Source of the DNA: Chloroflexota bacterium
Lineage (GTDB): Bacteria > Chloroflexota > Anaerolineae > Promineifilales > Promineifilaceae
Direction of reading: 5' to 3'
Assembly (NCBI GenBank): GCA_041390905.1
Contig: JAWKPA010000012.1
Coordinates: 63,216-127,215, forward strand
DNA length: 64,000 nucleotides
The notes under the pieces were generated by a model. That model saw only the letters and a program-made list of their open reading frames with translations. It had not been told where the DNA came from and ran no database searches. Both the position numbers and the translations under genes were made by a program. Below are positions 12,805-43,705 of this stretch, piece by piece; position 1 is the stretch's first letter; every line of letters starts with the position of its first letter.

Positions 12805-12892
12805 AGGGGAATAGAGATTGGGGATTGGAGATTGGAGATTGATGAAGGGTTTCAATCTCCAATCTCCAACCACTAATCTCCCTTTGCTTGAT
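12805..12892. repeat. heptamer-tandem hairpin element (GGAGATT / AATCTCC type)
   Basis: gattggggattggagattggagattgatgaagggtttcaatctccaatctccaaccactaatctcc. Sits at the 3' end of the S2P gene. Confidence 0.75.
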
Positions 12893-16118: not shown

Positions 16119-16136
16119 GAGGGGCGGATATTTGTC

Positions 16137-16202
16137 GAGATTGGAGGTTGGAGATTGGAGATTGATGAAGGTTGACAATCCCTAATCTCCAATCTCCAAT
16201 CC
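16137..16202. repeat. heptamer-tandem hairpin element (GGAGATT type)
   Basis: gattggaggttggagattggagattgatgaaggttgacaatccctaatctccaatctccaatcc. Confidence 0.75.
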
Positions 16203-16206
16203 CCTT

Positions 16207-19589: not shown

Positions 19590-19678
19590 AGGGCATTCTC
19601 ACTAATTGTGTTTTGCTGCATTGTACTGGGTTATAAACAAGAATTCTACCTTTCGCACACGCAGCCAAGCTCCAATCT

Positions 19679-21739
19679 CTAATCCCCAATCTTTCTGACC
19701 TGCCCCATAACAGACACATCATAACCGGGGAGAGCAGAAACGGCCGTTCTTACCTCCCCATCATGAAGCAAATCCAGCAGCGGCTTCAACTGTTCGCTTT
19801 CATAGTAGACGAGCGGGATCACCAGCTCATACTGCTCATGCGCCAGCGGCACAAAACCGAGGTTCAGCGCCCGCGCCGCCGCCTGAATCCCCAGCCCGGC
19901 ATCAGCCACGCCAGATGAAACCGCCGCTGCCACCGCCAAATGGGTATATTCCTCCCGCTCATAGCCACGCACCTGCGCCGGGTCAATCCCCCGCCGCCCC
20001 AGCTCATAATCCAGCAGCACCCGCGTGCCTGCCCCCCGCTGCCGGTTGACAAGCTGTATATCCGGGTTGGCCGCATCTTCCCAGCCCGCCAGCCGCTTGG
20101 GGTTGCCCGGCGGCACCATCCACCCTTGCTCCCGCCCCACCAGCGTCACCACCGCCACGGGCTGCCCCGGCAGATAGCGACGAATATAGCTGTCATTGTA
20201 AATCCCCGTTTCCGGGTCGAGCAGGTGCGAGCCAGCCAGATGTGCTTCGCCGCGCCGCAGGGCCACCAGCCCGCTTAGGCTGCCGACGTTGGCCGACATG
20301 AGACGAAAAACGGCCGTTTTTTCCGCCAAAAACTGAGCCAGCACATCCAGCGTCAAATCATGGCTGCCAATCGCCACAATCGTGCGCTCAATTTCCCTGG
20401 GCGTACGGTACAAATGCACCGTCACCGTCGCCCCGGCGTCTTCTCCTTCGCTAAAGCGGGGAATGCGAACAATCCCATCGGCTCGCACCAGCGAGGTGAT
20501 GACCCCCGCGCCGCGACTGATGGGGGTGGTCATGATGTTGTCGCCCACCTTGCCCACCGCCACCCGCACAAAGTCGTCGTCGCCAGTGTGGGAATTGATT
20601 TTGCGCGTTAGTCTGGCCTGAATCGTCGGCGGCTCATACGCCAGCCGCCCCTGCCACCGTGCCAGCAGCGGCTCGACAAAGATTTCGCCGGTGAGGGCGG
20701 CACTAACGGGGTAGCCGGGTACGCCGATGATGGGGGTGGTGTGGGGTGTGGGGTGTGGGGAGATTGGAGATTGGTTATTGGAGATTGGAGATTGGGAGGT
20801 TTCTAATCTCCAATCTCCAATCTCCAATAACCCAATGATAACGGGGTGGCCGGGGCGGACGGCCACGCCGTGTACCAGCAGTTGGCCGAGTGATTGGACA
20901 ACGTGGGCGGTGTAATCTTCGCTGCCGGCCGATGACCCGGCGTTGAGCAGAATGAGGTCGTGGGTTTGGGCGGCTTCACGAACGGCCGTTTGAATCGCCC
21001 CAAACGCATCCGGCACAATCGGCCAGCGGGTGGGCAACCCGCCCCAGTTGGCAACCTGCGCCGCCAGCACAATGCTGTTGTATTCGATGATTTGGCCGGA
21101 AGCGATGCCCGCAGAAACGGCCGTTTCCGCTGAGATTAGCTCCGACCCCGTGGGAATAATCGCCACTCGCGGCTGCCGGTAAACCGTCACCGTGGCATGA
21201 CCCGACCCCGCCAACGCTCCCAAATCCACTGGCCGCAGCTTGTGGTTGGCAGGCAGCACCAGCTCCGTCGCCACCATGTCCTCGCCCATGGGGCGCACGT
21301 GGTGCCACGGCGGCAGTGCCGCCCGAATCTGGATGCCGGGGGTGCCGTCGGGCAGCGTCACCGGCTCGGTGTGTTCAATCATCACCACGGCGTTGGCCCA
21401 ATCGGGCAGCGGGTGGCCGGTGTTGACGGCCTGAATGGGACGCGTTACGCTGTCGGGCGGGGTGTCTTTGTCAATGAGATTGAGCGTCAGGGGAGTGGTT
21501 TCGCTCGCTCCCACTGTGTCCTGCGCCCGCATGGCGTAGCCGTCCATGGCGCTGGCGTGGTAGTGGGGGGCGGATAGTTTGGCAAAAACGGCCGTTGCGG
21601 TTAAACGGCCGTTGGCCTCCGCCACCGGAATCGTCTCGCTGCCCAATGGCCGCCACAAATCGGCCGCCTCTAACGCCGTCCGCAGCGCCGCCTGCGCCTC
21701 GTCCAGCGGAATGTCCTCAAGGTAGATATGTCTTTTCAT
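19679..21739 (-). CDS. moeA: molybdopterin molybdotransferase MoeA fused to a C-terminal PBP-like (periplasmic-binding-fold) domain; contains an in-frame repeat insertion
   Basis: MoeA N-terminal and MPT-binding domains (…HGVAVRPGHPVIIGLL / IIGVPGYPVSAALTGEIFVEPLL). The C-terminal approximately 260 aa resemble the PBP_like domain commonly fused to MoeA. Confidence 0.8.
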   Translation of the reverse strand: MKRHIYLEDIPLDEAQAALRTALEAADLWRPLGSETIPVAEANGRLTATAVFAKLSAPHYHASAMDGYAMRAQDTVGASETTPLTLNLIDKDTPPDSVTRPIQAVNTGHPLPDWANAVVMIEHTEPVTLPDGTPGIQIRAALPPWHHVRPMGEDMVATELVLPANHKLRPVDLGALAGSGHATVTVYRQPRVAIIPTGSELISAETAVSAGIASGQIIEYNSIVLAAQVANWGGLPTRWPIVPDAFGAIQTAVREAAQTHDLILLNAGSSAGSEDYTAHVVQSLGQLLVHGVAVRPGHPVIIGLLEIGDWRLETSQSPISNNQSPISPHPTPHTTPIIGVPGYPVSAALTGEIFVEPLLARWQGRLAYEPPTIQARLTRKINSHTGDDDFVRVAVGKVGDNIMTTPISRGAGVITSLVRADGIVRIPRFSEGEDAGATVTVHLYRTPREIERTIVAIGSHDLTLDVLAQFLAEKTAVFRLMSANVGSLSGLVALRRGEAHLAGSHLLDPETGIYNDSYIRRYLPGQPVAVVTLVGREQGWMVPPGNPKRLAGWEDAANPDIQLVNRQRGAGTRVLLDYELGRRGIDPAQVRGYEREEYTHLAVAAAVSSGVADAGLGIQAAARALNLGFVPLAHEQYELVIPLVYYESEQLKPLLDLLHDGEVRTAVSALPGYDVSVMGQVRKIGD
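20727..20836. repeat. composite heptamer hairpin element (GGGGTGT x3 plus GGAGATT arrays) inserted in frame inside moeA
   Basis: ggtggtgtggggtgtggggtgtggggagattggagattggttattggagattggagattgggaggtttctaatctccaatctccaatctccaataacc. Translated within MoeA as LEIGDWRLETSQSPISNNQSPISPHPTPHTTP. Confidence 0.8.
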
Positions 21740-21814: not shown

Positions 21815-22018
21815 GAACCGCAGAGTTCGCAGAGGGCGCAAAGACAGAGAAGTTGGATACGGATAAAAACAATGAGCCAGTAAGTGAGATTGTAATAAGT
21901 TACAAGAGATTGGAGATTAGAGATTAGAAACGAGCCAATCTCCAATCTCTAATCTCCATTTTGTATATCTAACCTTCCTTCCTAAACCTCCGCGCTCTTT
22001 GCGCCCTCTGCGGTAAAT
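21815..22018. repeat. nested element: outer IR (CCGCAGAGGGCGCAAAGA ... TCTTTGCGCCCTCTGCGG) enclosing a GGAGATT-type heptamer hairpin (21893-21958)
   Basis: Lies between the divergent moeA and DUF4956 gene starts. The outer arms match the element at 345-470. Confidence 0.6.
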
Positions 22019-25552: not shown

Positions 25553-25612
25553 AAGAAGAGGCTTGGAGATTGATAGAGGTTCACAATCTCCAACCCTCAA
25601 TCGCTAATCTCC
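25553..25612. repeat. heptamer-tandem hairpin element (GGAGATT type)
   Basis: ggcttggagattgatagaggttcacaatctccaaccctcaatcgctaatctcc. Sits at the 3' end of the M20 peptidase gene. Confidence 0.7.
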
Positions 25613-32885: not shown

Positions 32886-32950
32886 CGATTGGTTAATTGG
32901 AGATTGGAGATTGGTTGGCTGCCTATCCCAATCTCCAATCGCTAATCTCC
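32886..32950. repeat. heptamer-tandem hairpin element (GGAGATT type) between convergent genes
   Basis: ggttaattggagattggagattggttggctgcctatcccaatctccaatcgctaatctccaatt. Confidence 0.75.
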
Positions 32951-34069: not shown

Positions 34070-34210
34070 GGTTCCTCCTCGATAGCAGCCACAATGATGC
34101 TCATTGTGACCATTTTCCTATGACCTATTTCTTTGACGGATTCCGGTTTTGCCTCATACTGTATACATCAGTATTGTTTTCCTGGGATTACCCAACAGGG
34201 AGTCGTCTTA

Positions 34211-37059: not shown

Positions 37060-37122
37060 ATTGGGGATTGGAGATTGGAGATTGATGAGGGTTCACAATC
37101 TCCAATCTCCAATCTCCAATCC
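37060..37122. repeat. heptamer-tandem hairpin element (GGAGATT type)
   Basis: gggattggagattggagattgatgagggttcacaatctccaatctccaatctccaatccc. Confidence 0.75.
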
Positions 37123-37128
37123 CTCAGA

Positions 37129-39270
37129 TTAATCATCAACAATGTAGAGGGTGGCGAGCAAACGGCCGTTAACCGCCACCACATCTTCCGTCATGCCACC
37201 GGGCAAGGTTTGCTGAACGGCCGTTAATTCATCAAATCGCTCCGGCAGGAAAATATAAACCACACCCTTGTCAATGAGCAAACTGAGGTCTGCCGGGGGC
37301 AGCTCCGGCGGCTCTCCCACGTCAACGGCTTCAGCGTCTGCCACCAGATAGGGCAAGGTAGCAAAGTTCCAATACATCCAGGGTGCGCCCACAAAAAAGA
37401 AGCGGTGATCCCCCTTCAGCGCATTGAGACGCGGTGCCAGTTCAGTCGCCAACTCAGCGTGTGAGCCGCCATAAAGTCGCTGCGGTACGGCCTCGTTGAA
37501 GTAGGTGTTGAGGCTGGTGGTGGCAAAAACCACAACAGCCAGGGCTAACAATCCATTGACAACCGCGTTCGTCTGCGTCCCAGTTTCAAAAACGGCCGTT
37601 TTCACCATCTCCCCCACCTCCCACAGCCCCAACGCCACAAAAAAGCAGGTCGGCACCGCCAGCGTAATCAGCCGCTGGCTCGACGGTGGGCTTTCGGTCA
37701 GCATTCCTCCCAGCAGCATTCCCCCCCACCACCACGCCACCAGGGGAGCCGTTGGCTGTGCCTGCCGCCACCACAGCAATTTAGCCGTGCCAAACAGCAG
37801 CCCCAGCAAAAACATGGCCCCAAAAAATGGATCCAGCAGCGGCTGGCGCAGCCCGTACCACACGGTGCGGTCGGGATAATAGGTAAACGCCATCGCCGCC
37901 CGCTGGAACTGATCCCACAAAACGGCGGCATGGCTTTGCTGCCGAAGCTCCACCTCCCGCTCCAGCCAGCCGCTTTGGAAGATGCCTACTGTGTTCAGCC
38001 GGGCGTTAAATTCATCGGGGAAGCGGGCGGCGTATTGCAGCATGGGGGCAGCGGCGATGAGGAAGGTAAGGAGCATGATGAGCAGCCCGGTTTGGTGCTG
38101 CCGCCAAAAGTGGCGCGGGGCGCGAATGAATTGGTAAGCAATGACGGCGAGGACGACGACGGGGGTCAGCCGCGCCCCGGCGTAAAAATAAAAGGCAAAG
38201 CCACTCACCAGCCCCACCAAGCCCCAGTCGCGCCGTTTACCTTCGTCCAGGGCGCGAACGAGCAGCCACAGGGCGAGGGAGAGGAAGAGGGGATCGGCGA
38301 TTTGGTTGGAGCCGAGGCGAGAGAAGTGGATGTGGTAATGGTAGGTGGCGAGGAGAACGGCCGTTAACCACCCCATCTTCTCCCCCGCCAGCCGCCGCAC
38401 CAGCAAAAACGTCACCAGCACGTTGGCCGTGCCAACCAACGCCCAGGCAAGCCGCAGCCCAAAGATGGTGCGGCCAAAGAGGGCGATGGTGAGGCTGTTG
38501 AAAAAGAAGCTCATGGTTGGCACGCCCAGCCAGCCCGTGCCAAGCGGGTTCCGCAGCGTGCCTTCCAGCACCCGCACCGCTTCCAGACCCTGCGAAGCTT
38601 CGTCACCGCCCAGGGTAAAGGGGATGGTTTCTAGCCGCCAGACGCGCAACAAAAAGGCTGCCAGAAGGAGCAGAAGGAGGAAAATGGGACGCGGACGAAC
38701 GCGGACAAACGCGGACAAATCTTTGATTTTCCAGTTTTGCCACCTGGTGGAAAAGGAAGTTTGGGACGCAGATTTTCCTGATAGAGCCTGATTTTTACGG
38801 CGTTGGCTGGTTGTAATCTGGCTCAATCCGCGTTCGTCCGCGTTTGTCCGCGTCCTATTGCAACGGGTGGGCAGAACGGCCGTTAACCACAACCCTACCG
38901 CCGCCAGCCACGCCGCCGTCACCAGCAGGTAGCTGTCATTTTGGCCGAGTTGGGGAATGGTGAGCAGGGAATAGGCCAGGCAGATGGCTGCCCCCAGCAG
39001 CAAAAAAAGCCGGGTTGCGGAAAAGCTGTGGAGGAAGTGGCGGAGAGACTGTGGATTACTGGGTGGTTTCTGGGGATAAACGGCCGTTTTATCCACAGGT
39101 TCGCGTAAAAACAGGGCAATGGCGACGATGGCAGCGGCAAAGACGGCCGACCACGGCGGCACCCCTTGCCCGGCTTCGGTGGCAGTGAGTTGGAGGAAAT
39201 AAACGGCCGTTAGCACCCCCGCCACCACCACAATCAGCAGATAAAAAGCGTCACGCGCCTGTTCACGCAT
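37129..39270 (-). CDS. glycosyltransferase family 39 (ArnT/PMT-like) membrane protein; ORF as called includes an upstream 4-TM segment and an in-frame hairpin element
   Basis: The core GT39 region begins …IFLLLLLLAAFLLRVWRLETIPFTLGGDEASQGLEAV…. The start is placed at MREQARDAFYLL (cat 39268-39270). An alternative start is the TTG just after the element, at about 38705. Confidence 0.6.
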   Translation of the reverse strand: MREQARDAFYLLIVVVAGVLTAVYFLQLTATEAGQGVPPWSAVFAAAIVAIALFLREPVDKTAVYPQKPPSNPQSLRHFLHSFSATRLFLLLGAAICLAYSLLTIPQLGQNDSYLLVTAAWLAAVGLWLTAVLPTRCNRTRTNADERGLSQITTSQRRKNQALSGKSASQTSFSTRWQNWKIKDLSAFVRVRPRPIFLLLLLLAAFLLRVWRLETIPFTLGGDEASQGLEAVRVLEGTLRNPLGTGWLGVPTMSFFFNSLTIALFGRTIFGLRLAWALVGTANVLVTFLLVRRLAGEKMGWLTAVLLATYHYHIHFSRLGSNQIADPLFLSLALWLLVRALDEGKRRDWGLVGLVSGFAFYFYAGARLTPVVVLAVIAYQFIRAPRHFWRQHQTGLLIMLLTFLIAAAPMLQYAARFPDEFNARLNTVGIFQSGWLEREVELRQQSHAAVLWDQFQRAAMAFTYYPDRTVWYGLRQPLLDPFFGAMFLLGLLFGTAKLLWWRQAQPTAPLVAWWWGGMLLGGMLTESPPSSQRLITLAVPTCFFVALGLWEVGEMVKTAVFETGTQTNAVVNGLLALAVVVFATTSLNTYFNEAVPQRLYGGSHAELATELAPRLNALKGDHRFFFVGAPWMYWNFATLPYLVADAEAVDVGEPPELPPADLSLLIDKGVVYIFLPERFDELTAVQQTLPGGMTEDVVAVNGRLLATLYIVDD
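38690..38850. repeat. long hairpin element (ACGCGGAC/GCGGACA heptamer arrays; about 30-nt arms and about 100-nt loop) lying in frame inside the GT39 ORF
   Basis: gggacgcggacgaacgcggacaaacgcggacaaatc … gctcaatccgcgttcgtccgcgtttgtccgcgtcc. Confidence 0.7.
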
Positions 39271-39287
39271 GAATTTAAAGCAGAGAG

Positions 39288-39350
39288 ATTGGGGATTAGA
39301 GGTTGGAGATTGTGAAGGTAGTCCCCAATCTCTAATCTCCAATCTCCACT
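39288..39350. repeat. heptamer-tandem hairpin element (GGAGATT/AGAGATT type)
   Basis: ggggattagaggttggagattgtgaaggtagtccccaatctctaatctccaatctcc. Confidence 0.7.
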
Positions 39351-39354
39351 TATC

Positions 39355-41310
39355 CTATCCAACCATCGGCAGCGGAATACTATCCACCGTTGGCACTTTC
39401 GGCTGTAGCGGCTGATGATGCGGCCGCTTCTTCACCGGCGGGCATTCCCACGCCTCCGGCGCCGTTTCCCGCCGCAAATCCGTTAGTTTCGGCAAAATAC
39501 CGCAGGCAAAACATTGGTGGCGGCAATCAATCCGCGTCTCCTGCGCCTGGCTCATCAAATAATCCTGCGTCAAGAACTTGCGCGTAATCGCCACATCAAT
39601 ATGCTCCCAGGGGAAAATTTCGTCAATGGTGCGCTTGCGGTGGGTAAAAAAGTACGGGTCAAGCCCTTCCGCCGCCATCGCCTCCAGCCACACATCCTCC
39701 TTGAAATGCTCCATCCAGGCGTCAAACTTCGCCCCATTGCGCCATGCCCGCTCCACCGCATTGGCAACCCGGCGGTCGCCCCGGCTCAAAAACCCTTCAA
39801 ACACCGATTCACGCGGGTTGTTCCAACGCAACTTCAGCCCATTGCCGCCAATCTCCCGCTTCAACAGCGACAACTTCTCATACACCTTGTCCACCGCATC
39901 CATCGGCTCCCACTGAAACGGCGTATGGGGTTTGGGAATGAAGGTGCTAACCCCCACATTGACGCTGGCCTTGTTGCCGTGGAACTTGCGCCCCTCGTGC
40001 AGCACCTGCCGGGCCAGGTCAATAATCGCCTCCACATCCTCCATCTCCTCCATCGGGTGACCAATCATGAAGTAGAGCTTGATGGTGCGCCAGTTGCGGC
40101 GATAAATCTCCCGCGCCGTTGCCAGCAGCTCCTCATGCGTCACATATTTGTTGATGATATTCCGCATTTTCTCGGTGGCCGCTTCCGGGGCCAGGGTGAA
40201 GCCGCCCCGCTTGCTGTCGCCCAAATTGTCCATGAGCTGGGTGGAAACGGACTCGATCCGCAGTGAGGGCAGGGAAATGTTTAGCCCCATATGCCCAAAC
40301 CGCTTGCCGATTTGCTCGGTTAGCTCCAAAACGTGGGTGTAGTCGCTGGACGAAAGCGACAGGAGGGCGATTTCTTCATAGCCGGTTTTGTCGAGGATTT
40401 CTTCCATAGCGGCCAGGATTTCGGAAACCGGCCGTTCGCGCACCGGGCGCGTCACCATACCTGCGTGGCAAAAGCGGCAGCCACGGGTGCAGCCGCGCAT
40501 AATCTCAATCGGGGCGCGGTTGTGTACCAGTTCCACAAAGGGGATGATGAAGTCGGTGACGGGCGGCGGCATCACCGGGACAATCGTTTTCATCACCTTG
40601 CGCGGTGCTTCGGGCATGTTGGGGGTAATCGCCTTCACCGTGCCGCTGTCGTGGTATTCCACGTCATAAAAGCGCGGCACATAGCACCCCTCAATTTGGG
40701 CAATATAGCGCAGCTGCGTCTCCCGGTCTAAATGGCTGGCGGCACGCATAATGCCAACGATTTTAAGAATCGCCTCTTCCCCTTCGCCAATGACAAACAC
40801 GTCAATAAAGGGAGCCATTGGCTCCGGATTGTAGCAGGCGTGGCCGCCAGCAATGACCAGCGGATAGCTTTCGTCCCGCTCTTCGGCGCGAATAGGCATT
40901 CCGGCCAGATCCAGCAGGTTGAGGGCGTTGGTAAAAAGCTGTTCGTAGGGCAAGCTGATTGCCAGCATGTCAAAGTCGCGGATGGCGTGCTTGGTTTCCA
41001 GCGAAAACAGCGGGATTTCCCGTTCGCGCATCAGCTCTTCCATGTCGGTCCAGGGGCAGTAAACGCGCTCGGCCAGCAGGTTGCGATGCTTGTTGATGAT
41101 GTCGTACATAATCATCAGCCCCAGGTTGGACATGCCCAAGTCGTAGATGTCGGGGAAGGCGAGTGCTACTTTAAAATCAATGTCGTGCCAATCTTTAATA
41201 ATTTGATTGTATTCGCCGCCGGTATAACGTGCCGGTTTTGTTACGCGGGGGAGAATGCGTTCTAACGCGAGTTCAATTTGGGCTGCGGTGCAGCTTGCTG
41301 TTTTTATCAT
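39355..41310 (-). CDS. B12-binding-domain radical SAM protein (TIGR03960-like fused to a DUF2344/TIGR03936-like C-terminal region)
   Basis: CxxxCxxC motif RGCTRGCRFCHAG. N-terminal KPARYTGGEYN. 651 aa. AAGGAA upstream of the ATG (cat 41308-41310). Confidence 0.75.
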   Translation of the reverse strand: MIKTASCTAAQIELALERILPRVTKPARYTGGEYNQIIKDWHDIDFKVALAFPDIYDLGMSNLGLMIMYDIINKHRNLLAERVYCPWTDMEELMREREIPLFSLETKHAIRDFDMLAISLPYEQLFTNALNLLDLAGMPIRAEERDESYPLVIAGGHACYNPEPMAPFIDVFVIGEGEEAILKIVGIMRAASHLDRETQLRYIAQIEGCYVPRFYDVEYHDSGTVKAITPNMPEAPRKVMKTIVPVMPPPVTDFIIPFVELVHNRAPIEIMRGCTRGCRFCHAGMVTRPVRERPVSEILAAMEEILDKTGYEEIALLSLSSSDYTHVLELTEQIGKRFGHMGLNISLPSLRIESVSTQLMDNLGDSKRGGFTLAPEAATEKMRNIINKYVTHEELLATAREIYRRNWRTIKLYFMIGHPMEEMEDVEAIIDLARQVLHEGRKFHGNKASVNVGVSTFIPKPHTPFQWEPMDAVDKVYEKLSLLKREIGGNGLKLRWNNPRESVFEGFLSRGDRRVANAVERAWRNGAKFDAWMEHFKEDVWLEAMAAEGLDPYFFTHRKRTIDEIFPWEHIDVAITRKFLTQDYLMSQAQETRIDCRHQCFACGILPKLTDLRRETAPEAWECPPVKKRPHHQPLQPKVPTVDSIPLPMVG

Positions 41311-41344: not shown

Positions 41345-41398
41345 CCTGACATGTTGTTGGAGATTAGAGATTGGAGATTGCAGATGGTCAATCTACCC
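41345..41398. repeat. partial heptamer hairpin element (GGAGATT type)
   Basis: gttggagattagagattggagattgcagatggtcaatctaccc. One arm is degraded. Confidence 0.5.
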
Positions 41399-43634: not shown

Positions 43635-43705
43635 AGTGATTAGAGATTGGGGATTAGAGATTGTGAACCTTCATCAATCTCCAATCTCCAATAACCAATA
43701 ACCAA
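43635..43705. repeat. heptamer-tandem hairpin element (GGAGATT type)
   Basis: gattagagattggggattagagattgtgaaccttcatcaatctccaatctccaataaccaataacc. Confidence 0.75.

Follow-up and report, generated by a model that had tools for sequence, protein, structure and literature searches.

The glycosyltransferase gene and its insert

The window analysed here is a 64-kb stretch of the Chloroflexota contig JAWKPA010000012.1, and all coordinates are positions within it. Its minus strand carries a gene for a family 39 glycosyltransferase (GT39), within which a palindromic element lies in frame. The features of the gene and of the element are listed below.

37129-39270, minus strand: host gene, encoding a 713-aa GT39/PMT_2 glycosyltransferase of GT-C fold, stop codon included
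38875-39270, minus strand: N-terminal module of four TM helices (aa 1-132), which element-free homologues also carry in conserved and fused form
38683-38859, minus strand: the palindromic element in full, 177 nt, encoding the peptide NRTRTNADERGLSQITTSQRRKNQALSGKSASQTSFSTRWQNWKIKDLSAFVRVRPRPI as codons 138-196 of the host gene
38827-38859, minus strand: 5' arm, AATAGGACGCGGACAAACGCGGACGAACGCGGA in gene sense, built of 10-nt units; peptide N-RTRTNADERG
38716-38826, minus strand: interior of the long form, 111 nt, of which the initial ~75 nt, to ATCTGCGTCCCA, are common to L081 and L084
38762-38772, plus strand: arm-like motif TGGGACGCAGA within the element, a direct repeat; TCTGCGTCCCA in gene sense
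38683-38715, minus strand: 3' arm TCCGCGTTTGTCCGCGTTCGTCCGCGTCCCATT, one arm of the inverted repeat, preceding TM1 of the GT-C core
38599-38694, minus strand: core TM1 (aa 193-210) and the GGDE motif (D223, E224) in the first extracytoplasmic loop, placed by invariant columns, the AF2 helix and loop charges
37563-37581, minus strand: solo-arm remnant GGGACGCAGACGAACGCGG at a second site in the same gene; peptide GTQTNA

The host protein is 100% identical to P0001, annotated as 'glycosyltransferase family 39 protein [Anaerolineales bacterium]', and combines the Pfam match, the loop 1 DE motif and the GT-C fold that define GT39/PMT_2 enzymes. The PMT_2 match exceeds its cut-off of 26.1 with 61.7 bits, the homologue alignments show no variation at D223 and E224, and the AF2 model of the whole protein (pLDDT 82, pTM 0.86) retrieves the ArnT structures 5f15 and 5ezm as its top Foldseek matches (E = 4.7e-8). 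These three traits are shared with ArnT and PMT-type GT-C enzymes (PDB 5f15, 5ezm), whereas the Chloroflexota subfamily to which the host protein belongs adds four N-terminal TM helices, which AF2 models with a pLDDT of 91-98. The identification of this N-terminal module as DUF998 was considered and rejected, with a score of 28.2 bits falling below the cut-off of 30.

Within this otherwise confident GT-C model, the peptide encoded by the element stands at a pLDDT of 45-57. It is hydrophilic and strongly basic, with 13 K/R against 3 D/E. Loop charges alternate along the protein, with the insert on the K/R-rich side of the membrane and the DE loop on the opposite side. The insert is most likely translated, and would form a flexible loop of positive charge for which a cytoplasmic location is predicted.

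Anatomy of the palindromic element

A preliminary description of this DNA had recognised a 160-nt hairpin at 38690-38850. The inverted repeat is real, but its extent was underestimated, the element covering 177 nt from 38683 to 38859. A repeat search delimits two inverted arms of 33 nt each, 91% complementary and 111 nt apart, and each arm is composed of about three tandem 10-nt units, ACGCGGACRA. The element ends are GGGACGCGGACRAACGCGGAC, and its A/T-rich flanks (AAT.../...ATT) prolong the palindrome. The native linker is replaced, and at the GT39 site, which offers no empty allele to align with, no target-site duplication was delimited. According to a comparison with L081 and L084, the L081 copy stops at TCTGCGTCCCA, an inner boundary of the element. 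The 3' arm together with the upstream GAT TTG (38721-38716) encodes DLSAFVRVRPRP-I, the basic juxtamembrane segment that precedes core TM1.

Folded as RNA, the region reaches -78.9 kcal/mol, as compared with -46.4 +/- 3.9 in shuffled sequences (z = -8.35), and none of 200 shuffles equals it. Rfam covariance models give no relevant match at E <= 1 across 38000-39600 and no match at gathering score across the whole window, while a promoter and terminator scan reveals no site attributable to the element.

Reading frame, gene start and orthologues

The preliminary description was right that the minus-strand ORF reads through the element, and the peptide it quoted is recovered by translation. The 737-aa ORF, counted from the TTG at 39342, crosses an unrelated intergenic hairpin. 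The true start is probably the ATG at 39270 (MREQARD...), at which the identical NCBI protein P0001 also begins and which the orthologues retain. Counted from this ATG, the N-terminal 4-TM segment shortens from the earlier estimate of ~180 aa to ~135 aa, and the 177 nt of the element fill exactly 59 codons. Likewise, the internal start formerly placed at ~38705 has to be moved, since the sole in-frame candidate start inside the element is a TTG at 38718-38716. Among the six frames, the used frame alone is open in all four orthologous copies of the element; the simulated probability that four neutrally evolving copies show no stop is 0.14, so that frame openness by itself is not significant.

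Among the homologues aligned, the full insert is found only in the window gene, in P0002 (84% identity) and in P0003 (79%), and the arm-pattern search recovers a further orthologous copy of the element, L014. In all four, the element has the same length of 177 nt with zero indels. P0004 (75% identity) keeps the 3' arm, as DLSAFIRIHPRP, and 11 nt of the interior, the remaining element being gone. The arms are absent in all 29 more distant metagenomic relatives, each at most 64% identical, which limits the comparison to four or five orthologues. At the second site, the insert is longer in P0002 (GTRTNADERGR), reaches 43 aa in P0003 and is absent in P0004. L001 shares the synteny of the locus (rSAM / GT39 / CoA-transferase). 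Separately, the intergenic sequence of L001 differs from that of the window by ~110 extra nt, which include a decayed half-element, and the borders of this difference are unclean.

Composition and selection

The element stands apart from its host gene in composition. The codon-periodicity analysis that the preliminary description had proposed across the element gives GC1/2/3 values of 0.31/0.54/0.49 for its interior, as against 0.66/0.45/0.67 for the N-terminal module, and the element lacks the signature of the host. The same division is seen in substitutions. Outside the element, the gene evolves with an omega of 0.14-0.16 and a third-position bias, the N-terminal module at 0.23-0.31 and the core at 0.11-0.14. 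Over the whole element, substitutions at the three codon positions number 10/12/11, 12/12/9 and 8/7/5 in three pairwise comparisons; the interior and the 5' arm show no preference for a codon position. Orthologue comparisons give dN/dS of ~1 for the 5' arm, which decays by CG>CA changes, and of 0.54-1.4 for the interior. The 3' arm has dN = 0, with dS of 0.11-0.38, in all three pairwise comparisons. As judged from these substitution patterns, the peptide sequence of the interior and the 5' arm evolves neutrally, with the frame remaining open.

A dispersed repeat family in Chloroflexota

A 23-mer pattern of the arm matches 88 stretches in GTDB genomes, mostly in Chloroflexota MAGs (JACRPR01, JACKCD01, JACRMI01, CAYPHY01 and others). 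Exact 23-mer arm loci number at least 16 in the Ardenticatenaceae MAG JACKCD01 and at least 23 in JACRPR01, while the 64-kb window holds one full copy and one remnant. Hairpins of ~70 nt, long forms (177 nt here) and solo arms coexist in the family. The arms are free of stop codons in all six frames, and of 53 arms, 22 fall within ORFs 200 aa or more in length, about a dozen of which are confirmed by domain matches. Copies are found in frame within Lyase_1/ArgH, Methyltransf_11 (a SAM methyltransferase), the linker of an E2 acyltransferase and an AMP-binding protein (acyl-CoA synthetase), and further in PMT_2, YfhO, Q_salvage, Wzy_C and TMEM260-like hosts. In the window and the 94 sampled loci, no transposase-like unit lies between arms that are 250-5000 nt apart, and such pairs are only incidental. 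Because these loci hold no autonomous element with the same arms, it is from the dispersed copies that mobility is deduced.

Relation to known intragenic repeats

Insertion of palindromic repeats into genes has precedents. According to the parts of two reviews devoted to them (PMC10969869, section 4.2; PMC3733652), Rickettsia palindromic elements (RPEs; Ogata et al. 2000, Science 290:347) are dispersed palindromic sequences of ~100-150 bp, many copies of which lie in frame in unrelated housekeeping genes and are read through as an extra peptide compatible with the fold; intragenic REPs are documented in the same sources. The element described here resembles RPEs in being palindromic, dispersed and in frame in unrelated genes, and in encoding no transposase. 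However, RPE hosts are obligate intracellular Alphaproteobacteria, whereas the present element resides in free-living Chloroflexota. Unlike in RPEs, its arms are made of tandem 10-nt units that are free of stops in six frames, and short (~70 nt), long (177 nt) and solo-arm forms occur together in the family. RPEs also use one conserved peptide frame, while the Chloroflexota copies are read in several frames and both orientations. By this description, the element is a palindromic repeat of RPE-like, intragenic type and represents a family that is new but of a known kind, a likeness that makes no claim to RPE membership; the Rfam result has no bearing on such membership because Rfam holds RNA families.

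The element can equally be compared with the intragenic bacterial MITEs, such as the ERIC/RU elements (Delihas 2007, PMC2759123) and QMITE1 of Coxiella (PMC5896051). It shares with them a small size, terminal inverted repeats, multiple copies, the lack of a transposase and occasional in-frame fusion to ORFs. It measures 177 nt, under the ~500 bp of MITEs, has no open frame other than that of its host, carries terminal inverted repeats of 33 nt and belongs to a set of dispersed copies; a cognate autonomous IS with the same ends was not encountered in the 94 sampled loci or the window. Compared with ERIC/RU and QMITE1, the intragenic share of the Chloroflexota copies looks high (22/53 arms). REPs are smaller, as they span 20-40 bp and their stems measure 8-9 bp and their loops 4-5 nt (PMC3733652), whereas here the stems reach ~30 bp, the elements 70-177 nt, and the arms are internally periodic, so that size and stem place the element outside the REPs. 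Both termini, TGGGACG...CGTCCCA, do hold CGTC followed by CCA, a resemblance in the letters to the CGTC tag and CCA tail of PMC3733652. In the literature on Chloroflexota, no description was found of these repeats or of the decamer palindrome.

Alternative readings of the locus

The preliminary description had left two possibilities, a repeat absorbed into a coding sequence or two genes separated by the element. In the two-gene reading, a small 4-TM protein would terminate within the element or ahead of it, and a TTG in or just after the hairpin would open a GT39 gene of its own, leaving the repeat intergenic. What resembles an ArnT-like start, TM1 followed by the GGDE loop, does come right after the element, an in-frame TTG is available at 38718-38716, and the composition of the element is non-coding. 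This TTG, however, reads TTA in the DNA of the four orthologues P0002, P0003, P0004 and L014, TTG codons further downstream fall within the conserved TM1, and none of five orthologues has a stop between the two parts. Among the best 120 of 538 homologues, most are ~670-690 aa long, and those aligned carry the N-terminal module. In essentially all element-free homologues (more than 100, of ~675 aa; Chloroflexota, Promineifilaceae, Ardenticatenaceae), this module is fused to the GT-C core as a single protein, which answers the earlier question of whether the fusion exists elsewhere and shows that the element did not join a small membrane protein to the glycosyltransferase, as had been suggested. 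In P0004, a 21-aa linker connects both parts, and the N-terminal module is confidently modelled within the whole-protein AF2 model. Because element-free homologues are fused, both halves are under purifying selection and the TTG is not conserved, the division into two genes is very improbable; the locus is one gene, and absorption of the repeat into the coding sequence is supported by the frame, the orthologues and the family copies. That this single gene has become a pseudogene or been functionally disrupted is an even less likely reading. Expression could suffer from a foreign insert of 59 codons and from the great stability of the mRNA hairpin, yet both halves have remained under purifying selection over four or five post-insertion lineages (omega 0.11-0.31, dS up to ~1), many residues, among them the predicted catalytic DE motif, do not vary, and frameshifts and stops are absent. 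There is least to be said for a native, lineage-specific linker, a low-complexity expansion palindromic by chance. The 64-kb window does contain a single full copy, and the insert occupies the site of a linker that varies among homologues, but the same 29-nt arms recur dozens of times in related genomes, at unrelated loci in intergenic DNA as well as within unrelated genes, the long form also shares its interior with other copies, another arm remnant lies elsewhere in the same gene, and the codon-position composition of the element is not that of the host. Such an origin can hardly be credited.

A further reading, unlikely although less so than the preceding ones, accepts that the hairpin is translated and proposes that selection also maintains its nucleic-acid structure, which would most likely matter on the antisense (window plus) strand. 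It could act as an antisense RNA or DNA hairpin, or as an mRNA structure modulating transcription or translation between the modules. In the 5' arm of the orthologues, every CpG change reads CG>CA on the sense strand; pairs are thereby lost from the mRNA, where 27-31 of 33 remain, whereas the antisense strand keeps 32-33 of 33 when G-U is counted, with an MFE of -85 to -96 kcal/mol antisense as compared with -54 to -79 sense. The window copy itself still folds very strongly. This retention of antisense G-U pairing could hint at a structural constraint. However, the CpG transitions elsewhere in the gene are themselves 64% CG>CA (28 vs 16), and the asymmetry of the arm therefore has a p of ~0.03-0.07 once shared ancestry is allowed for. 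Protein constraint on the 3' arm (dN = 0) is enough to freeze half of the stem, and the P0004 gene is intact after the loss of the 5' arm and the interior. Family copies also lie in both orientations relative to their host genes, and no Rfam family, promoter or terminator signal was detected.

A model for the history of the insert

Altogether, the 177-nt hairpin is very probably a decaying, non-autonomous palindromic repeat of MITE/RPE type that belongs to a family dispersed over Ardenticatenaceae and related Chloroflexota and is most likely translated within a single GT39 gene. In the proposed model, the repeat would have landed in the linker between the N-terminal module and core TM1 before the members of a small clade (the window organism, P0002, P0003, L014 and P0004) diverged from their common ancestor, replacing the native ~19-aa linker of a single pre-existing GT39 gene. 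Such an insert could be tolerated since its length is a multiple of three (59 codons), its arms carry no stop codon in any frame, and its basic, hydrophilic peptide would suit a cytoplasmic loop according to the positive-inside rule. The 3' arm peptide DLSAFVRVRPRP, which is under purifying selection, would then have been recruited as the basic segment next to TM1, while the hairpin appears to be eroding on the mRNA strand. The P0004 lineage would later have lost the 5' arm and the interior through an in-frame deletion of 120 nt. An older insertion of the same arm type probably occurred in a later loop of the gene, where it seems to be eroding likewise.

Significance for Chloroflexota genomes

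As a broader proposal, which we put forward tentatively and rate as possible rather than probable, Ardenticatenaceae and related Chloroflexota would host an undescribed class of palindromes, with arms of short tandem units free of stops in six frames, that colonises genes at an RPE-like scale and has its fragments domesticated. The units of this class may be 10 nt long here (GGACRAACGC) and 7 nt long in a second family (GGAGATT). Its targets may especially be loops of large membrane glycosyltransferases, in which fragments may become linker or juxtamembrane peptides, as in the case of the 3' arm with its dN of 0. In a bolder version, the hairpin may also be maintained antisense as a functional RNA or DNA structure.

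In practical terms, the annotation of the locus is settled as a single gene whose odd basic segment derives from a repeat. In Chloroflexota MAGs, elements of this kind inflate predicted proteins and distort both the predictions and the alignments, and the repeats could act as strain markers. The 'selfish DNA inside protein-coding genes' for which RPEs are famous is also found in free-living Chloroflexota, where it affects the core enzymes ArgH, E2 and acyl-CoA synthetase as well as many GT-C membrane proteins. The locus itself offers a small, datable case of exaptation under way, in which one arm is selected, the rest is drifting, and one lineage has trimmed the element in frame.

An in-frame palindromic repeat in the GT39 gene

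The host gene and the repeats within it are as follows.

37129-39270, minus strand: GT39 glycosyltransferase gene, 713 aa counted from the ATG
38683-38859, minus strand: palindromic element, 177 nt, exactly codons 138-196 of the GT39 ORF
38827-38859 and 38683-38715: inverted 5' and 3' arms (gene sense) found by repeat search, 33 nt, 91% complementary, 111 nt between
38718-38716, minus strand: TTG, the sole in-frame start-like codon in the element
37563-37581: second site in the same gene, 19-nt solo-arm remnant, peptide GTQTNA

At the element, the minus strand (38400-39500) reads AATAGGACGCGGACAAACGCGGACGAACGCGGA ... TCCGCGTTTGTCCGCGTTCGTCCGCGTCCCATT, each arm is built from about three 10-nt units in tandem, and no Rfam family is matched. 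The region folds as RNA at -78.9 kcal/mol versus -46.4 +/- 3.9 for dinucleotide shuffles (z = -8.35). Both arms and fold bear out the hairpin reported in the preliminary description, although its extent is 177 nt rather than 160 nt.

The hairpin is very probably an absorbed repeat that is translated in frame within a protein whose two parts already formed one gene. The window protein shares 100% identity with a database entry named GT39 from an Anaerolineales bacterium and matches Pfam PMT_2; its AlphaFold2 model is confident (pLDDT 82, pTM 0.86), with ArnT and other GT-C enzymes as the nearest solved folds. A homology search with this protein returned 538 proteins, and most of the best 120 of the 538 are about 670-690 aa long. 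Alignments of 16 and of 50 homologues gave the same outcome: element-free proteins run from a fused N-terminal 4-TM module through a linker of about 19 aa into TM1 and the invariant GGDE loop, so the 4-TM segment is indeed fused elsewhere. The helices of this module are modelled at pLDDT 91-98, and in the element-bearing clade omega is 0.23-0.31 for the module and 0.11-0.14 for the core, which argues that both are still functional coding sequence. It had alternatively been proposed that the element separates two genes, the downstream one starting at a TTG just after the hairpin. This finds no support in the fused homologues or in the low omega of both parts, and the TTG is TTA in four relatives (database proteins P0002, P0003 and P0004, and the orthologous locus L014). 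The competing proposal, that an absorbed repeat had joined a small membrane protein to the glycosyltransferase, holds for the in-frame absorption but not for the joining, since linker and fusion pre-existed.

The insert carries 13 K/R versus 3 D/E. Loop charges alternate over the first six helices, with the N-terminus, loop 55-84 and the insert on the K/R-rich side, and loops 31-39 and 108-114 and the catalytic DE loop on the opposite side. ArnT/PMT-type GT-C enzymes have an extracytoplasmic DE loop, which would place the insert on the cytoplasmic side. Its pLDDT of 45-57, between two well-modelled modules, marks it as a flexible or unreliable segment of the model.

Insertion history and substitution pattern

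Orthologous DNA was recovered for P0002 (L001), P0003 (L005), P0004 (L004) and an Ardenticatenaceae MAG (L014). The element lies at the identical place, at 177 nt and with zero indels, in the window, P0002, P0003 and L014. In P0004, the next outgroup (75% identity), only ATCAAAGATTT, a short duplication and the 3' arm are left, giving a 21-aa linker that is 120 nt shorter, frame again kept; neither arm was found in relatives more distant than P0004. This distribution places the insertion before the split of the five lineages. The element took the place of the native W/K-rich linker and was later partly lost in the P0004 lineage. The second site likewise shows erosion with the frame kept: beside the window's remnant, P0002 has a 30-nt arm (GTRTNADERGR), P0003 a 43-aa insert and P0004 nothing. 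In the P0003 insert (L005, codons ~560-603) the left arm is of the GGACGAACGC type and its partner is another periodic motif, GTCGTCGGTCGTCGGTCGTCGG, which also comes after arms in loci L059 and L078; this pairing points to hybrid elements or to a third family with periodic arms.

Table. Substitutions in the GT39 gene and its insert (dN/dS, Nei-Gojobori estimates)
Rest of gene: dN/dS 0.14-0.16; by codon position e.g. 62/47/182, strong third-position excess
Whole element: dN/dS 0.54-1.02; by codon position 10/12/11, 12/12/9, 8/7/5, flat
Interior: dN/dS 0.54-1.4
5' arm: dN/dS about 1 (the two pairs with dS > 0)
11 codons ending in the 3' arm (LSAFVRVRPRP): dN = 0; 1-3 synonymous changes per pair

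The GC3 periodicity analysis envisaged in the preliminary description separates host (0.65/0.44/0.72 by codon position) from element (0.45/0.57/0.53). Among the six frames, only the used one is open in all four orthologous copies; since a simple neutral simulation gives this a 14% chance, openness of the frame is weak evidence when taken by itself. The four copies differ at 10-22 of 138 neutral positions without any indel, which probably strengthens it. The picture is of a foreign, non-coding-type sequence, probably carried through translation, whose last dozen codons are now a constrained basic segment immediately before TM1.

A structural role of the hairpin on the antisense strand is an alternative of low probability. 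In the orthologues, every CpG that has changed within the 5' arm shows CG>CA when read on the sense strand; these changes weaken the mRNA hairpin to 27-31 of 33 pairs (-54 to -79 kcal/mol) and preserve G-U pairing on the antisense strand only, which keeps 32-33 of 33 pairs including G-U (-85 to -96 kcal/mol). However, CG>CA already exceeds CG>TG by 28 to 16 in the rest of the gene, so the arm asymmetry is only marginal (p about 0.03-0.07 by our estimate).

Other repeats in the window and its relatives

The 64-kb window contains 75 copies of the decamer palindrome AACGGCCGTT versus 0.10 expected from shuffles (about 1 per 850 bp; e.g. 37591-37600, 38356-38365, 38875-38884, 39079-39088 and 39202-39211), by far the most frequent 8- to 10-mer there. 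L001, L004 and the Ardenticatenaceae MAG JACKCD01 carry it at a comparable density (1 per 600-900 bp); it is absent from the MAGs JACRPR01 and JACRMI01, which nearly lack even CGGCCG (3 in 176 kb), and in two other Ardenticatenaceae MAGs the ACGGCCGT core is flanked differently. In its behaviour the palindrome resembles cyanobacterial HIP1, though here in Chloroflexota, and no mention of it was found in the literature. A copy lies 9-15 nt upstream of each of the two GT39 element sites.

More abundant is a second hairpin family, whose arms are tandem 7-nt GGAGATT units (SPISNLQS if translated), with 49 pattern matches in the window versus 0.55 expected, at about 11 loci:

12806-12881, 16136-16204, 19665-19687, 20759-20832, 21905-21957, 25597-25612
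32892-32950, 37060-37123, 39284-39346, 41359-41388, 43635-43696

Two copies, both in intergenic spacers, bracket the GT39 gene, the upstream one stretching the mechanical ORF to 737 aa. The motif is also in frame in related MAG proteins (the E2 linker in L012; L071; L082).

A dispersed repeat family in Chloroflexota

Scanning one genome per GTDB species with the arm pattern GGACRAACGCGGACRAACGCGGA matched 88 stretches. Matches from Streptomyces, CPR bacteria and the like stand isolated or form tandem arrays; structured matches concentrate in Chloroflexota MAGs (JACRPR01, JACKCD01, JACRMI01, CAYPHY01 and others), with at least 23 loci in JACRPR01 and at least 16 in JACKCD01, the latter including L014. 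Three forms make up the family: hairpins of about 70 nt whose loop is rich in T, long forms with the window's interior (L081; L084 as far as ...ATCTGCGTCCCAAAATTC...) and solo arms. Copies occur in several frames and both orientations across genomes, and the consensus arms are stop-free in all six frames.

Of the 53 arms with enough flank, 22 fall within ORFs of 200 aa or more and have 40 aa or more to either side, some of these ORFs being spurious; for random positions in the same loci the figure is 74%. Domain searches identified as in-frame hosts an argininosuccinate lyase and a queuosine-salvage protein (Lyase_1 match and domain match, respectively, split in two), a SAM methyltransferase (insert spanned by the match), an E2 acyltransferase (in the linker), an acetoacetyl-CoA-synthetase-like AMP-binding enzyme, and Wzy_C, TMEM260-like, PMT_2 and YfhO membrane proteins. 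The long form in L084 uses the window's frame (RTRTNADERGFS...KRRKNQAKSGESASQNSFS), directly ahead of a TM helix in a further large membrane protein, one without Pfam match.

Single proteins of L043 (JACQGS01) and of L080 and L084 (JACKCD01) hold several different repeat-derived segments. An arm peptide lies beside a 'SLRGAGFATKQSP...LLRYARNDI'-type hairpin in a queuosine-salvage protein, and GT-C-like proteins carry a series of 'IGNGAIGNG...NADDADWGGFSRI' segments. Upstream of the Peptidase_S58 gene, the P0002 contig has about 110 nt more intergenic DNA than the window (L001 15057-15189 versus window 34073-34104), including a decayed half-element (...AAGATTTCGCAAAGGCCTCCATGTTTGGCCGCGTCCCATTT) that the window lacks; relatives thus differ in the presence of family remnants. 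No target-site duplication was established at the GT39 site or from this spacer difference, and no autonomous element with matching ends by arm-pair search of the sampled loci and the window.

Rickettsia palindromic elements (RPE) and intragenic REP/ERIC/QMITE copies have been described (PMC10969869, section 4.2; PMC3733652; PMC2759123; PMC5896051). They share with the Chloroflexota element a small palindrome without coding capacity of its own and in-frame copies in unrelated genes at protein-tolerated positions; phylum or REP-type architecture sets it apart from them, RPE being compared by description alone. Palindromic repeats inside genes are already known in principle. No prior description of the Chloroflexota family was found in the searchable literature; the family itself appears to be undescribed, as do the periodic and stop-free nature of its arms, how often it occurs in Chloroflexota genes and the partial domestication in the GT39 gene. 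In the genomes JACQGS01 and JACKCD01, large membrane glycosyltransferases seem to be preferred or tolerant hosts.
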